DNA of 64,000 bases, taken from IMG/VR virus record IMGVR_UViG_3300023202_000163, positions 14,117 to 78,116 of that record; one strand, written 5' to 3'. The position numbers and the translations under genes are program-made. Source of the DNA: a virus. The notes beneath the pieces were generated by a model. It did no database searches and was not told the origin of the DNA. It saw nothing but the letters and a program-made list of their open reading frames with translations. Shown in pieces: positions 33,678 through 49,685 of the stretch (its first letter is position 1; each line of letters opens with the position of its first letter).

Positions 33678-34865
33678 ATGGCCGACCCAACAGGTAGTTT
33701 CGGAGGAACATTTGGTCAGGGACCTGGAAGGGATCCTGGAGACCGCCTCTTTCAAGCAGTAGATACTCTGGCACGGTTGGCTACTATTCAAATCGCTCAA
33801 GATCGTCAGCTCATTTATGTAGAGGAAAACAATACCCTCTATGTAATGGATAAACAAGATAACAATGCAGATATAGGACTTGGTGAAGTAGCTTCCCCCA
33901 ACGGAGGTGTTTGGAAAATTGTAAATGGTGGTGTTGTTGGACCCCCTGGGCCTGCCGGACCTGCTGGAGGGCCTAAAGGAGAAACTGGAGCTACGGGGGG
34001 AACTGGGCCTGTCGGTGGCGTAGGTTCTCAAGGCCTACAGGGTGAAAAAGGGGAGACTGGAGAAGTAGGTAACACAGGGTCCACGGGCCTAGTTGGCCCT
34101 ATGGGGAACCCAGGTCCAGCAGGTATTGCGGGAAATGCAGGGGAAACCGGAAATACGGGTGGAACTGGAGCTACAGGTGTAACGGGCAATACAGGTAATA
34201 CAGGACCAGCCGGGCAAGCCGGAACCCCTGGAGGACCTCCCGGACCTGCCGGAGAAACCGGCCCCACTGGGCCTGCGGGGGGCCCTGACGGATCTACCGG
34301 GGAAACTGGAGCTACCGGACCTCAAGGAGAAACTGGAGCTACAGGAAACACAGGGGCGGGAGAAACCGGAGCTACTGGTGTTACAGGACCTCAAGGAGAA
34401 ACTGGAGCTACAGGAAACACAGGGGCGGGAGAAACCGGAGCTACTGGTGTTACAGGACCTCAAGGAGAAACTGGAGCTACCGGAGCTGTTGGGGCTCAAG
34501 GAGAGACTGGAGCTACCGGAGCTGTTGGGGCTCAAGGAGAGACTGGAGCTACAGGAAACACAGGGGCTCAAGGAGAAACCGGAGCTACTGGTGTTACAGG
34601 ACCTCAAGGAGAGACCGGAGCTACTGGGGCTACCGGAGCTGTTGGGGCTCAAGGAGAGACTGGAGCTACTGGTGTTACAGGACCTCAAGGAGAGACTGGA
34701 GCTACCGGAGCTATAGGGCCTGATTCCTATACACCAGGAAATGAGGCTGACTGGGAGTTACCTGCACCTTCCACTATATCGGAAGCTATAGATAGGTTGG
34801 CAGAGGCTTTTGTAAATGGAGAAACTGGACCTATAGGTCCCTTTGACGGCGGCCTCCCTAATTAG
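33678..34865 (+). CDS. Collagen-like virion fibre 1
   Basis: N-domain ([14 protein letters not shown]...PNGGVW), then long G-X-Y repeats and a short C-terminal module. Confidence 0.85.
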
Positions 34866-34980
34866 TAGAGTATAAACAGAACCAATGCTTATGTTTATTA
34901 TAGTGAATGCGAGCCCTGCCGCTTGATAGCAGAGGCGCATTAGAATATAACGCTCAATGCGAGACTAGGGGCCGAAGCTA

Positions 34981-46832: not shown

Positions 46833-46850
46833 CTACACTAAAGACTTTGC

Positions 46851-49685
46851 ATGAAAAACATTTGTTTTCTATGCGAAAGTACAGAATTTTACTCAGCAGT
46901 TTCAACTAGTGGTGAGAATACGCCTTATTTAGTTTGTGGTGGCTGTGGGGTATGGGCACAATTTCCTGAAAAATCCTTTAAAAGAAGTTCAGTCTTACTA
47001 GAGGATTCAGAACTATCAGAAAATTATAAATTAATAAACCAAGACTTGGCTGAGAGGCTTGCAGCAAAGCATAAACCCGAAAGCGTTTTAGACATAGGCC
47101 CCAAATCCCTTCATTTCACAGAGTGTTTTAAGGGTTTAGGGATAAATAAAGTTATAAGTATAGATGATTGCGAGACAAAAAAATATAAAATAGAAAAAAA
47201 CTCTAACAAAATTGTAGGGGATTTTCTAAGCTATAATTTTAATGGACAAAAATTTGATCTTATAACTTTAGTTCATTCTATCGAGAGATTTAAAAATCCT
47301 GTTTCTTTATTTAAAAAAATAAAAAGTATTTTGACAGATAAAGGAGTTGTTTACGTTAGAACTCCATTATCTGAATCGGTAGGTTTGCCTACTCACCTAA
47401 AAAAAGAAAATTATAAGAAAAATTCAATTATTTTTTCAAAAAAATCCTTTAAAGCTTTATGTAAAAAAGAAGGTTTTGTAATTTTTGATGAATGGGAACA
47501 ACCTGGTCTTGGCCAAATTGATTGGCAATTGAAAATTGCTGATGATATTAGAGTTTCTTTTGCTGTAATTTCACACAACGAAGAAAAAATTATAGGTAGA
47601 ATGCTCGACAGTATCTCCCCCATAGCTTGGGAGGTAGTAGTGTATTTAAATAATTGCAGCGACAACACACCACAAGTTATAAAAGATTTTAGTAAAAGAA
47701 CAGGAATTAAAATAAAAATTATAGAAGGGTTTTGGGACAATAACTTCGCCCGCGCTAAAAATGAGGCTATAATGGCCTGTGAGGGTACACACGTAGCTTG
47801 GATGGATTGTGATGATGTGTTATCCCCAGATGCCCCAGAAAAAATTATTAAGCTTTTACAAGAAAAACCCGACCATCCTCAGGATTGGAGACTTATATAC
47901 GGCGGAGACACATTTTTCCATCTAAGGTTATGGAAGAATGAAGCCAGAGACGACGGTAAAGGAAATGTCTATAAACCACATTTTCACGATAAATGCCATG
48001 AATATGTACAATTAGGTGCTTATGGTAGTATGAAGATTAAATGTGACACTATTACGCTAAAACATATTCCCCAGCCAAAAGATGCGTCTGGCAGAAACAT
48101 AGAAATACTAACTGAAGCTGAAAAGGTAGGACCTACGCCTTGTCCATATTGCCCAGGAGAATTTGATGGCAAAAGCAGAACTCTTTTTTATCTTGGTAAC
48201 GGATTAAGAGAAGCTGGTCGGTATGAAGAAGCATTAAAGAGGTACGATACATATCTAATAAACAATATGGGGTGGCACGACGAGAGATTCTGGGCTTGGA
48301 TGTATAAGGGCCAGTGTCATCAAGGGCTAAACCAAAAAGAAGAAGCTTTAAAAGCATATTGCCAAGCCATAGCTACCAATTCTCATTGGGCTGAGCCTTA
48401 CCTCGCTATAGCAAGAATGAAGTATCAAGAGGGTGCAGATACAAAAGAAGTAGCAAAATTCCAGCAAGCTATATCTTGGGCAGTACACGCAGCAACAAAT
48501 CCAATACCAAACACTTTAATGTTTTTGAATATGGGGGCTTATAAAGACCAACCATGGAGGTTAATAAGCTGGTGTTGGGAACATCTAGGAGATTTCGAGA
48601 AAGCTCTTAATTATGGTATAATAGCAAAAGAAAAAATAGGCGGGGAAGATCAATCTTGGGATGATCGTTTAAATAGGTTGCGTACCAGTTTAAATAAAAG
48701 TTCGCCCTCTGTCTCCAATGCTTCAAATAAAATAGTTCAAATATGCAGACCCGGCGCATTAGGTGATATTATCATGTCCACGGCTGCGTGCAAAGGTTTA
48801 AAAGAACAGGGTTATTACGTTCGTTATGTATGCCATCCCAGTTCTATAGAAGCAATATCCAATAATCCTTTTGTTGACGAAGTAATTACGGTTTCTGATA
48901 ATAATTATCCTAAAATTGTAGAAGCTACAAAGAATCTTGAAAAACCAGAAAAGTTTATACTTATGCAGTATCCTATGAATGAAGGCTATCCGGATAAACC
49001 TATGCAAAAACATCTATCTCATTATTTTTGCGAGCAAGCCGGGGTACCGCAGACTACTGATTTAAGTTTAGGTCTTACTCAGGAACATTTAAATTACGGG
49101 GCTGAGAATGGTTTCGGTAAAGTAGTTGTGCACACTACCGCAGGTTGGTCCCCGTTAAAAAATTGGCCTATAAATTGGTACGAAAAATTAGCCAAAATGA
49201 TAAAAGAAGAACTAGGCTTGGATGTAATACAGATAGGAGCAGAGAGGGATGTCCCTGTAGGGGGGATTACTAAGCTGGTAACTCCTTCAATAAAACATGC
49301 TGCGGCGGTGCAGAAATTCTGTACTCTTTTTATTGGCGGGGATTCAGTATTTAATCATACCTCTCGCGCAATGAATAAGAGATCCATTATTATATGGGGG
49401 TCTACTCATCCTCTTGGTTCTGGCTACGACCAGAATATAAATTTAGTAAATGGAGAAAAATGGACAAGAGACATGGGAAACGGGGGACCCACTAAAGAGT
49501 GTCAACCGTGCTATAAGGAGTTTAATCACATGTCTGTACACCCCAAACCTCCCTGTCCTAACTTAGTCGCGCATGATATCTCTACTCTTCCCAGAGAAGA
49601 CTACCCAGAAAAGACATTAAATAGCTGTATGTCAAAAAATACTGTAAATCTTGTATGGAAATACACTAAAGAACTTTTATCTTAG
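46851..49685 (+). CDS. Multidomain methyltransferase-like / GT2 / TPR / GT9 glycosyltransferase
   Basis: CxxC..CxxC plus VLDIG and FDLITLVHSIE; VISHNEE, NFARAKN, MDCDD (DxD); TPR helices; RPGALGDII, KNWP, FIGGDSVFNH, WGST. Confidence 0.88.
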   Translation: MKNICFLCESTEFYSAVSTSGENTPYLVCGGCGVWAQFPEKSFKRSSVLLEDSELSENYKLINQDLAERLAAKHKPESVLDIGPKSLHFTECFKGLGINKVISIDDCETKKYKIEKNSNKIVGDFLSYNFNGQKFDLITLVHSIERFKNPVSLFKKIKSILTDKGVVYVRTPLSESVGLPTHLKKENYKKNSIIFSKKSFKALCKKEGFVIFDEWEQPGLGQIDWQLKIADDIRVSFAVISHNEEKIIGRMLDSISPIAWEVVVYLNNCSDNTPQVIKDFSKRTGIKIKIIEGFWDNNFARAKNEAIMACEGTHVAWMDCDDVLSPDAPEKIIKLLQEKPDHPQDWRLIYGGDTFFHLRLWKNEARDDGKGNVYKPHFHDKCHEYVQLGAYGSMKIKCDTITLKHIPQPKDASGRNIEILTEAEKVGPTPCPYCPGEFDGKSRTLFYLGNGLREAGRYEEALKRYDTYLINNMGWHDERFWAWMYKGQCHQGLNQKEEALKAYCQAIATNSHWAEPYLAIARMKYQEGADTKEVAKFQQAISWAVHAATNPIPNTLMFLNMGAYKDQPWRLISWCWEHLGDFEKALNYGIIAKEKIGGEDQSWDDRLNRLRTSLNKSSPSVSNASNKIVQICRPGALGDIIMSTAACKGLKEQGYYVRYVCHPSSIEAISNNPFVDEVITVSDNNYPKIVEATKNLEKPEKFILMQYPMNEGYPDKPMQKHLSHYFCEQAGVPQTTDLSLGLTQEHLNYGAENGFGKVVVHTTAGWSPLKNWPINWYEKLAKMIKEELGLDVIQIGAERDVPVGGITKLVTPSIKHAAAVQKFCTLFIGGDSVFNHTSRAMNKRSIIIWGSTHPLGSGYDQNINLVNGEKWTRDMGNGGPTKECQPCYKEFNHMSVHPKPPCPNLVAHDISTLPREDYPEKTLNSCMSKNTVNLVWKYTKELLS

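Follow-up and report, generated by a model that had tools for sequence, protein, structure and literature searches.

Background

SgtA of C. difficile (358 aa), which consists of a GT-A domain and TPR and whose gene adjoins bclA3, transfers beta-O-GlcNAc onto Thr of GPT repeats (PMC7157674). On published architecture, the phage enzyme described here resembles SgtA in having a GT-A domain followed by TPR and in being encoded next to a Gly-X-Thr collagen-like gene, whereas SgtA has just two domains and comes from a Gram-positive spore former, and the phage module is fused to methyltransferase-like and GT9 domains. As would apply to the phage fibres, the glycosylated fibre of the SgtA/BclA3 system is displayed outside a dormant particle. 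BclA of Bacillus anthracis has a C1q-like C-terminal domain, carries O-linked rhamnose-anthrose oligosaccharides and belongs to the exosporium nap; its glycans include methylated sugars, to which the methyltransferase domain of the phage enzyme would be a parallel. Thr-rich Gly-X-Y repeats and, in fibres B and C, a BclA_C/C1q-like domain recur in the phage, but there the BclA_C-like domains are internal and under the Pfam cut-off, the exosporium-targeting N-terminus is replaced by a phage-specific 'P-FDTEE' head module, and at least two fibres apparently belong to the tail and not to a surface nap. By comparison, the analogy with BclA drawn in the preliminary description of this DNA is apt, as is that with SgtA, which shares the published GT-A-TPR architecture and glycosylates collagen Thr of BclA3.

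In sequence and fold, the GT2-TPR part is matched best by the peptide S-glycosyltransferases SunS and ThuS and the Listeria flagellin O-GlcNAc transferase GmaR (PDB 7msn, 7msk, 22ao), which share its two-domain arrangement and act on polypeptides; however, they are no more than 16-19% identical to it, modify Cys of a small peptide or Ser/Thr of flagellin and not collagen repeats, and are without a methyltransferase or GT9 fusion. TibC and Aah (BAHT) act in the cytoplasm, where they heavily glycosylate a fibrous repeat protein with heptose (PMC4358343). The phage GT9 domain has the same GT9-type GT-B fold (TibC, Z 20.5) and likewise, close to the C-terminal end of the C-lobe, an insertion with four Cys that resembles a metal finger (C339, C342, C358 and C370 in TibC; C-x2-C-x14-C-x23-C in the phage), but TIGR04414 matches only 3 of 17 GT9 domains, and these weakly, and the N-terminal beta-barrel domain is lacking. 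Mimivirus (L230, L71 and others) also encodes both collagen-like proteins and a multi-domain enzyme that glycosylates them, L230 being a lysyl hydroxylase joined to a GLT25D1-like glucosyltransferase acting on hydroxylysine (PMC9614988), whereas the phage has no hydroxylase and its presumed acceptor is Thr. As in mycobacteriophages, the glycosyltransferase is encoded in the structural region; those phages decorate their own virion proteins, at the C-termini of capsid and tail-tube subunits, with different enzymes and without collagen repeats being involved (Freeman et al. 2023, PMC10527164, as cited in PMC12619734).

Organization of the locus

The window, i.e. the whole stretch of 64,000 nucleotides analysed, is part of a 78-kb IMG/VR record rated 35% complete, a fragment of an uncultured jumbo phage. 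The source is assigned to a phage because an intein-bearing large terminase, a portal and a major head protein are encoded upstream of the collagen cluster. All the genes that the preliminary description had named were found on the + strand where it had placed them (Table 1). The enzyme gene belongs to a same-strand run of fibre genes in a late operon, in which neighbouring genes are 0-116 bp apart and no + strand terminator was convincing. Synteny of the enzyme and fibre genes is kept in three relatives (62-69% identity). Long reverse-strand ORFs across the collagen genes were rejected as genes, being mirror frames of the repeats.

Table 1. Features of the fibre-gene and enzyme region (positions in the window)
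Feature	Position	Strand	Remarks
Collagen-like fibre A	33678..34865	+	395 aa; Pfam Collagen E 1.4e-31; 86 triplets
Collagen-like fibre B	34981..36678	+	565 aa; Pfam Collagen 5.7e-24
BclA_C/C1q-like domain of fibre B (aa 236-385)	35686-36135		internal
Collagen-like fibre C	36678..40826	+	1382 aa; Pfam Collagen 3.3e-78; 218 triplets
Possible concanavalin-A/LamG-like lectin	40833..41738	+	301 aa; Atlas feature score only
134-aa ORF	41739..42143	+	function unassigned; 108-110 aa counterpart at same position in relatives
Collagen-like tail fibre D (by family match)	42143..44371	+	742 aa; tail-collar domain, Gp10_C-type tip
Collagen-like tail fibre E (by family match)	44414..46264	+	616 aa; Pfam Collagen 5e-21; PHROG tail fibre 6.9e-54
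180-aa protein	46290..46832	+	directly upstream of enzyme in all three close relatives (L001-L003)
Four-domain enzyme	46851..49685	+	944 aa; methyltransferase, GT2, TPR, GT9
Enzyme aa 1-215	46851..47495	+	CxxC...CxxC ribbon, then class I methyltransferase-like domain; Methyltransf_23 9.7e-14
Enzyme aa 232-610	47544..48680	+	GT-A (GT2) catalytic domain, then TPR helical domain; Pfam GT2 2.9e-20
Enzyme aa 625-944	48723..49685	+	GT9 (heptosyltransferase-fold) GT-B domain; Pfam GT9 3.7e-7
Collagen-like fibre F	53271..56708	+	1145 aa; Pfam Collagen 4.2e-88; 221 triplets

Collagen-like fibres

The five collagen genes described earlier and the sixth downstream all match Pfam Collagen (PF01391, E 1e-21 to 4e-88). 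No collagen ORF occurred in 119 arbitrary viral control loci (1.1 Mb), so the cluster is not due to chance. Dominance of Thr at the third (Y) position of Gly-X-Y was confirmed, with 485 of 740 positions (66%) summed over the six genes (A 46/86, B 43/73, C 139/218, D 37/73, E 31/69 and F 189/221).

Fibre A starts with the shared head module of about 85 aa, as judged by N-terminal alignment. Fibre B combines the 'P-FDTEE' head module with two stretches of collagen that enclose an internal domain, which gave an Atlas score of 0.95 to BclA_C/C1q clusters and TM values of 0.87-0.90 to viral models; its aa 276-370 matched Pfam BclA_C with E 5.9e-6 and 26.6 bits, under the 38-bit cut-off. The internal domain of fibre C (aa ~285-420), also with collagen on both sides, is homologous to that of fibre B (28% identity, E 5e-11) and is followed by a long non-collagen C-terminal part. 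The two C1q-like domains proposed earlier are therefore located in fibres B and C, albeit in internal position and, in B, under the family threshold. Fibre F has a short 'P-FDTEE' head and a non-collagen C-terminal domain beyond a DDDHPQY motif, and fibre E is collagen from its start, without the head module. Fibres D and E match tail-fibre types, D by Pfam Collar (6.9e-23), Gp10_C (1.7e-8) and, in PHROG, families of tail proteins and of tail fibres (down to 8e-45), so the exosporium-like coat or spore-like nap first envisaged is not supported. The candidate LamG lectin had language-model similarity of 0.97 to Laminin_G_3 clusters (22 of 30 Atlas matches) and no Pfam or PHROG match; since this similarity is its sole support, it is taken as a lead and not as a test. 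The 180-aa protein had no family match.

GT2-TPR domains and linkage to collagens

As predicted earlier, the enzyme combines four domains, all over Pfam cut-offs (Methyltransf_23 51.9 bits, GT2 73.3, TPR_2 36.5 and GT9 30.2). The GT2 domain has an invariant WMDxDD motif with D319, D321 and D322 invariant, whereas this lineage has LNNCSD in place of the nucleotide-binding motif DTGSTD, which counts against the proposed role. In PDB profile searches the GT2-TPR part matched GmaR (3.4e-39), SunS (4e-34) and ThuS (1e-29), the next GT2 giving 7e-11, and in fold searches with the model (pLDDT 93) SunS (Z 23.8) and ThuS (Z 22.6) were the only entries aligning across both domains. By profile and predicted fold, this half is much nearer to glycosyltransferases of proteins and peptides than to those GT2s that build polysaccharides.

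Co-occurrence of Gly-X-Thr collagens with the enzyme, proposed earlier as a check, was found in both directions. A collagen ORF was present in the locus of 13 of 44 enzyme clusters, made at 50% identity, versus 0/119 control loci (p 9e-9), and it lay <600 bp from the enzyme in 9 of these 13 versus 2.2 expected (p 2e-5); conversely, an enzyme homologue was present in 14 of 120 Gly-X-Thr collagen loci (11 clusters) versus 0/119 controls (p 8e-5). The collagen and control loci were the first matches listed and may differ in habitat or lineage, so these statistics may be inflated. GT2-TPR ORFs of 351-362 aa directly adjoin Gly-X-Thr collagens in many viral loci, and near-full-length enzyme matches adjoin them in bacterial contigs amid ordinary cellular genes, with no recognisable phage genes near the pair. 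The full four-domain fusion was also found in jumbo phages with capsid genes unrelated to those of this phage. Genetic linkage between the enzyme family and Gly-X-Thr collagens is non-random and crosses lineages, and the view that the enzyme is a protein-type glycosyltransferase coupled to these collagens is supported by homology, predicted fold and gene neighbourhood.

Collagen-independent occurrence, also raised earlier, was seen in part: although linkage exceeds chance, no collagen lay within 10 kb in 31 of the 44 GT2-TPR clusters and, among fusion clusters, in 4 of 8, so it is not universal. The nearest collagen gene was ~20 kb from the enzyme in two whole jumbo-phage genomes, and each of the five records examined that were whole or nearly so encodes collagens. 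Because most clusters have no collagen nearby, the GT2-TPR family clearly has other substrates, and the main targets in this phage might be other virion proteins (capsid, tail tube, non-collagen fibre domains) or host proteins such as flagellin or pilin. This would agree with the flagellin (GmaR) and small-peptide (SunS, ThuS) acceptors of the closest solved relatives and with the reported capsid and tail-tube glycosylation of mycobacteriophages (Freeman 2023, as cited in PMC12619734). However, the conserved neighbour, where present, is a Gly-X-Thr collagen; in L110 the enzyme is preceded by two ordinary cellular genes (redoxin, decarboxylase) and followed, ~0.65 kb downstream, by the collagen ORF; and one set of chains of this phage contains 485 Gly-X-Thr sites. 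Other proteins as main substrates are thus considered improbable.

GT9 and methyltransferase domains

The catalytic motif of the GT9 domain, an invariant RPGALGD, is intact like that of GT2, and the domain has, at its C-terminus, an invariant four-Cys cluster (C884, C887, C902 and C926; nt 49500-49628), for which no sequence homology with the TibC iron finger was detectable. Its model (pLDDT 88.8) was closest in fold to 3tov (Z 23.3), WaaF (21.9), TibC (20.5) and WaaC (20.4), the next GT-B scoring 13. NCBIfam heptosyltransferase I matched 17/17 GT9 domains; LPS heptosyltransferase models matched all 17 (best 2e-16) and the TibC/Aah model 3 (best 3.8e-5), with all scores far under curated cut-offs. 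The GT9 part is, on these models, a diverged heptosyltransferase, and its acceptor may be lipid-linked or a glycan, because its resemblance to LPS heptosyltransferases is no smaller than that to protein ones. A gene similar to rfaE_dom_II (ADP-heptose synthase-like, E 3e-47) was found in this genome and in close relatives, with no further sugar-nucleotide genes.

The enzyme might instead remodel the host envelope during infection by adding heptose and another sugar onto LPS core, O-antigen or another surface glycan, thereby blocking superinfection or altering receptors, its place among fibre genes reflecting a general clustering of host-recognition genes. Besides the resemblance of GT9 to LPS heptosyltransferases I, II and III, the absence of a signal peptide fits cytoplasmic-face LPS enzymes, the RfaE-II-like gene would suit this role equally, and glycosyltransferases in pelagimyophage tail-fibre regions are read in the literature as O-chain modifiers. 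This role is nevertheless quite improbable, as the GT2-TPR half groups away from polysaccharide GT2s, the GT9 scores fall far short of LPS-enzyme thresholds, and the short-range pairing with Gly-X-Thr collagens, including that in bacterial and small viral contigs, would be left unexplained. Phage glycosyltransferases often modify DNA, but glycosylation of hypermodified bases against restriction is highly improbable here, in view of the TPR protein-binding repeats, the protein-glycosyltransferase homology, the late structural-operon position, the collagen pairing and the absence of any thymidylate-synthase or hydroxymethylase family gene from the three close relatives, whose completeness is 69-89%, and from G003.

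Comparison across 22 homologues revealed a degenerate methyltransferase motif I in this copy (family DIGSKYPYF to DIGPKSLHF) and the replacement of H146 by R. Because these family-conserved residues are lost, a methyl 'cap' may not work in this phage.

Proposed fibre glycosylation

We propose, with a probability of roughly 0.6, that the locus encodes a fibre-glycosylation module in which the enzyme O-glycosylates Y-position Thr of the phage's own collagen-like fibres A-F. The host cytoplasm late in infection would be the setting, and the fibres would be modified either before they trimerise and the virion is assembled or while this happens. The TPR domain would hold the extended collagen chain while GT2 attaches the initial sugar to Thr, in the manner of SgtA on BclA3; action of GT2 on fibre Thr is somewhat favoured. 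GT9 could then add heptose or a related ADP-/NDP-sugar, onto the first sugar or directly onto Ser/Thr, with ADP-heptose topped up by the RfaE-domain-II-like adenylyltransferase; transfer of heptose within the same glycan is put forward tentatively. Family members whose methyltransferase is intact would methylate the glycan, a step that may be impaired in this copy and is unlikely to occur in this phage. From the preliminary description, the reading of glycosylated collagens is retained by comparison, through GT2-TPR homology and collagen linkage, while the coat and a working methyl cap are not supported; nor is a universal linkage with collagens. The idea that a single polypeptide initiates, extends and caps the glycan is likewise not upheld, since the order of action is one that we infer and methyltransferase residues are lost here.

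The four-domain fusion and the putative link to heptose are new here. If the proposed glycosylation is true, its likely benefit would be stabilised proline-poor triple helices, and a glycan surface on the tail fibres, and possibly on other fibres, would affect adsorption, protease resistance or recognition.

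Collagen-like fibre genes in the structural region

The source record is 78 kb long and was rated approximately 35% complete in IMG/VR; since contigs of its close relatives measure 184–267 kb, the phage is regarded as a jumbo phage. The large terminase and the portal, both of which contain inteins, and a major head protein are encoded on the plus strand upstream of six collagen-like genes, A to F, the positions of which are listed with those of other features in the table below. The six ORFs matched Pfam Collagen (PF01391) with 74.7–289.5 bits (cut-off 27.2) and contained 69–221 Gly-X-Y triplets each, and Thr occupied the Y position in 485 of the 740 triplets over A to F (66%; 86% in F), which bears out the preliminary description of six collagen genes with a Thr-dominated Y position. 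From A to the gene of a large multidomain enzyme (hereafter the enzyme), intergenic gaps were 0–116 bp, with no convincing plus-strand terminator between them.

Features of the window discussed in the text
Feature	Coordinates	Strand	Evidence or remark
Collagen-like gene A	33678-34865	+	Pfam Collagen
Collagen-like gene B	34981-36678	+	Pfam Collagen
Collagen-like gene C	36678-40826	+	Pfam Collagen
Collagen-like gene D	42143-44371	+	Pfam Collagen; tail-collar domain, Gp10_C-type tip
Collagen-like gene E	44414-46264	+	Pfam Collagen; PHROG tail-fibre
Collagen-like gene F	53271-56708	+	Pfam Collagen
Shared N-terminal head module	33678-33977, 34981-35280, 36678-37040, 42143-42442, 53271-53390	+	N-terminal alignment
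ORF with LamG/ConA likeness	40833-41738		301 aa
Enzyme	46851-49685	+	944 aa
DIGPKSLHF in methyltransferase	47091-47117		enzyme aa 81-89
Changed His of VHSIERF in methyltransferase	47286-47288		enzyme aa 146
LNNCSD in GT2	47649-47666		enzyme aa 267-272
2H phosphoesterase	52698-53270		190 aa; Pfam Acb1
Superoxide dismutase domain protein	21994-22971		325 aa
Intein-interrupted reverse-strand genes	57-2939, 4887-7130	-	within 57-7130
Intein-interrupted terminase and portal genes	12035-21990	+	region containing both genes

Two C1q-like domains had been described. The region in B was supported by Atlas (0.95) and its counterpart in C by homology to that of B, whereas the Pfam match of B to BclA_C (PF18573, E 5.9e-6, 26.6 bits) fell below the 38-bit cut-off; the domain is internal rather than C-terminal in both proteins and is lacking in A, D, E and F. 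For the LamG lectin also proposed, a LamG/ConA likeness was seen by language-model features only. The fibres share a Thr-rich Gly-X-Y region with the BclA-type exosporium glycoproteins, but the latter are spore-nap proteins, whereas the genes described here lie in a phage structural operon and PHROG tail-fibre families matched both D and E. The spore-like coat envisaged earlier was thus not shown. Likewise, no exosporium-targeting N-terminus was found in the fibres, which carry a phage-specific shared module there instead. This head module comprises about 85 residues, is common to A to D and ends in GG[FV]W right before the collagen region; close to their N-termini, B, C and D show an FDTE/D motif, which also occurs in the abbreviated head of F, and the N-terminal comparison of A to F revealed no such module in E. 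This module may serve the fibres that share it for docking or for nucleation of the trimer. Long Pro/Val/Ala-rich ORFs on the reverse strand (38888–40255, 53909–55351 and similar ones) were rejected as genes, being mirror frames of the GGN-NNN-ACN repeats.

Several other genes were noted in the window. A 2H phosphoesterase matching Pfam Acb1 (anti-CBASS; E 2.7e-9) is encoded immediately before collagen gene F, and the gene that follows the portal gene directly encodes a protein matching the C-terminal domain of Fe/Mn superoxide dismutases (E 8e-16). Four genes are interrupted by intein splicing and LAGLIDADG domains, namely those of the large terminase and the portal and two on the reverse strand.

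GT2-TPR half of the enzyme

As described previously, a single ORF was found to combine methyltransferase, GT2, TPR and GT9 domains in that order, the class I methyltransferase-like part being preceded by a CxxC...CxxC ribbon. The GT2 domain scored 73.3 bits with Pfam GT2, and D319, D321 and D322 of the DxD motif (WMDCDD) were invariant among 22 homologues. When compared with proteins of known structure, the GT2-TPR profile matched the protein and peptide glycosyltransferases GmaR (3.4e-39), SunS (4e-34) and ThuS (1e-29), while the best polysaccharide-type GT2 was chondroitin synthase (7e-11). In the structural model (pLDDT 93), the TPR helical domain is directly C-terminal to GT-A. Fold comparison gave Z 23.0–23.8 for SunS and 22.6 for ThuS, with up to 316 residues aligned over model residues 6–391, and all other entries aligned to one domain only with Z 18 or less. 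By these sequence and model comparisons, the GT2-TPR half is nearer to protein-modifying glycosyltransferases than to polysaccharide GT2 enzymes.

The closest known system is SgtA of C. difficile, a 358-aa GT-A plus TPR protein encoded immediately upstream of bclA3, which transfers beta-O-GlcNAc from UDP-GlcNAc onto Thr of Gly-Pro-Thr repeats (PMC7157674); the enzyme is likened to it through published architecture only. No named SgtA homologue was present among the 120 homologues listed, for which source names were at most generic (glycosyltransferase, TPR repeat protein). The GT2-TPR family of about 350 aa had at least 1706 metagenomic homologues among 8000 candidates scored, and it also occurred as methyltransferase fusions of about 520 aa and PF04488 fusions of about 605 aa, indicating that the modules are shuffled freely. 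A tblastn search against cultured phages returned weak GT9 matches only, in Caulobacter jumbo phages, and no cultured relative. It was also observed that the nucleotide-binding motif DTGSTD of distant GT2 homologues reads LNNCSD in the lineage of the window, a replacement that may indicate a different sugar-nucleotide donor.

Methyltransferase part

The methyltransferase domain was recognised with 51.9 bits (PF13489, cut-off 27). In this copy only, the SAM-binding motif I of the family, DIG[SC]xYPY[FL], is changed to DIGPKSLHF and VHxIEHF to VHSIERF, so that the near-invariant P87 and H146 are both replaced. These changes suggest that methyltransferase function has decayed in this phage. Glycan methylation is plausible for the enzyme family and doubtful for this copy; with the family-conserved residues lost, the methyl cap that the same polypeptide had been thought to add was not shown.

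GT9 half and a possible heptose supply

The GT9 domain was identified with 30.2 bits (PF01075, cut-off 22), and its model (pLDDT 88.8) matched 3tov (Z 23.3), the LPS heptosyltransferases WaaF (21.9) and WaaC (20.4) and the autotransporter heptosyltransferase TibC (20.5), the remaining GT-B enzymes scoring about 13. The heptosyltransferase I model matched all 17 homologous GT9 domains, and the TibC/Aah model (TIGR04414) matched 3 of the 17 (best E 3.8e-5), the domain of the window not being among them. On the NCBIfam equivalog models of LPS heptosyltransferases I, II and III, the window's own domain scored at most 24 bits (cut-offs 134–185), which gives no indication of orthology and places it in the superfamily only. 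As all GT9 scores lay far below curated cut-offs, the domain is assigned to a diverged GT9 subfamily.

At the end of its C-lobe, the GT9 half has four invariant Cys residues, spaced C-x2-C-x14-C-x23-C in this copy. Their position and spacing resemble those of the TibC iron finger, in which the Cys residues are C339, C342, C358 and C370 (PMC4358343). Homology of the two was not detected: a finger-only profile returned chance Kazal-type matches and not TibC, the whole GT9-domain profile reached TibC at E 0.3 only, and by fold score TibC cannot be told apart from WaaC and WaaF. Of the structural alignments, that with TibC was the longest, covering 275 residues at an rmsd of 5.4. The GT9 fold is common to TibC/Aah and the enzyme, but the N-terminal beta-barrel of TibC was not present, the region before GT9 being occupied by the TPR domain.

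The genome itself encodes an rfaE_dom_II-like protein (bp 5746–6132 of the whole record, G000:C1, plus strand), some 8 kb to the left of the window, and so do close relatives, e.g., the relative at locus L353 (bp 5507–5920, minus strand). The products (137–141 aa) had by far their best match to the HldE/RfaE adenylyltransferase domain (TIGR02199, E 3e-47), with 156–160 bits, just under the cut-off of 181.5. The gene stands alone, adjoining the RtcB and CCA-enzyme genes; no heptose kinase or GmhA gene was found alongside it, and in the five records searched it was the only sugar-nucleotide gene found, NTP_transferase and SIS_2 (GmhA) giving no match. The sugar added by the predicted GT9 domain is probably of the heptose type.

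Linkage of the enzyme to Gly-X-Thr collagens

The order collagen D, collagen E, a 180-aa gene and the enzyme gene was kept in three relatives (62–69% identity), two of which also had a large collagen gene a short way downstream, separated by a few genes. Because these are close kin, the search was extended to distant homologues, including full-length fusions with 26–30% identity. A profile search retrieved 80 viral loci, in which the enzymes formed 44 clusters at 50% identity; an ORF with 12 or more triplets was called a collagen, and 119 loci listed for a random 14-mer (1.1 Mb) served as control. A collagen ORF was present in the locus in 13 of the 44 clusters and in none of the 119 listed control loci (Fisher p 9e-9), and in 9 of these 13, fewer than 600 bp separated it from the enzyme gene, where random placement predicts 2.2 such clusters (p 2e-5). 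In the reverse direction, a GT2(-TPR) homologue lay 0.1–6 kb from the repeats in 14 of 120 listed loci (11 clusters) chosen only for six consecutive GGN-NNN-ACN triplets, vs 0 of 119 (p 8e-5), the reverse-test and control samples both being the first loci listed, between which habitat may differ. Many of the homologues in the Gly-X-Thr loci were ORFs of 351–362 aa directly adjoining the collagen gene. The co-occurrence that the preliminary description suggested testing was therefore recovered as enrichment in both directions, but not as a general rule, since 31 of the 44 clusters had no collagen within 10 kb. As most family members have no collagen neighbour, it is possible that protein substrates other than collagen repeats are used; a search of the loci without collagen for Ser/Thr-rich neighbours found no consistent one.

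The four-domain fusion was also found in jumbo phages with capsid genes not detectably related to that of the window; a capsid query matched close relatives only. Collagen genes were present in each of the five whole or near-whole records examined, the nearest being about 20 kb from the enzyme in two of them. Near-full-length matches occurred as well in contigs binned to bacteria, several adjoining Gly-X-Thr collagens. Two of these pairs were inspected: 1) in a 580-kb contig of a beta-proteobacterial MAG (L102:3485-10758), the neighbours were an ion channel, IS481 transposases and a transporter, and 2) in the genome of a Methylocucumis oryzae isolate (L110:2041-6593), they were a redoxin and a decarboxylase. 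Of the neighbours tested at the two loci, none was recognisable as a phage gene, so that the enzyme-collagen pair is retained where phage surroundings are not evident. At loci L053, L057, L115 and L133, from giant-virus metagenome bins (IMG/VR GVMAG), only a few kb separate GT2-TPR homologues from ORFs of Gly-X-Thr collagens.

Proposed function

From the SgtA-like architecture and the same genetic relation to a Gly-X-Thr collagen, we infer that the TPR domain would bind the collagen chain before it has folded or while it folds, and that the GT2 domain would glycosylate Thr of the repeats. The GT9 domain would then add a heptose-type sugar, either onto the first sugar or straight onto the polypeptide, in the manner of TibC with TibA, with the rfaE_dom_II-like protein as a possible source of ADP-heptose. 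Judged from domain comparison and gene linkage, fibre glycosylation by the enzyme is likely, and to this extent the earlier interpretation stands, its coat and cap not having been shown. Remodelling of host LPS, which would suit the GT9 half and agrees with a published view of phage glycosyltransferases, misfits both the protein-type GT2-TPR half and the pairing with collagens, and we consider it improbable. Glycosylation of DNA is unlikely because no thymidylate-synthase or hydroxymethylase homologue was found in the relatives and the enzyme has protein-binding repeats.

Taking fibre glycosylation further, we propose, with a probability of roughly one in four, that 1) the enzyme and a Gly-X-Thr collagen form a portable cassette common to unrelated jumbo phages and Gram-negative bacteria, 2) the single polypeptide builds a heptose-containing, in some members methylated, Thr O-glycan, and 3) the GT9 half with its four-Cys finger represents a new class of protein-directed heptosyltransferase, independent of TibC/Aah and fed by the phage ADP-heptose synthase domain. 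Related precedents are Bacillus BclA, TibC/Aah, mimivirus L230 (PMC9614988) and virion glycosylation in mycobacteriophages. A 2010 study on bacterial collagen-like proteins predicted hydroxylation and sulfation, but not glycosylation. Our literature search found no paper on a phage GT2-TPR/Gly-X-Thr collagen pairing or on an MT-GT2-TPR-GT9 fusion.

Collagen-like tail fibres are commonly carried by environmental phages, and to our knowledge glycosylation of the phage particle has been documented experimentally for very few phages. If the enzyme glycosylates Gly-X-Thr repeats, the fibres of many aquatic phages would be covered with sugars, which would affect adsorption, host range and how well the fibres withstand proteases and escape recognition. 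Glycosylated Thr stabilises proline-poor triple helices in annelid cuticle collagens; we know of no explanation for the stability of collagen-like phage fibres lacking hydroxyproline. Protein heptosylation, known to us so far from autotransporter adhesins, would then have two kinds of fibrous substrate, and a compact, expressible enzyme for producing glycosylated bacterial collagens would become available. Given the presence of the enzyme-collagen pair in ordinary bacterial DNA, Gram-negative bacteria may bear glycosylated collagen structures on their surface that have gone unrecognised.
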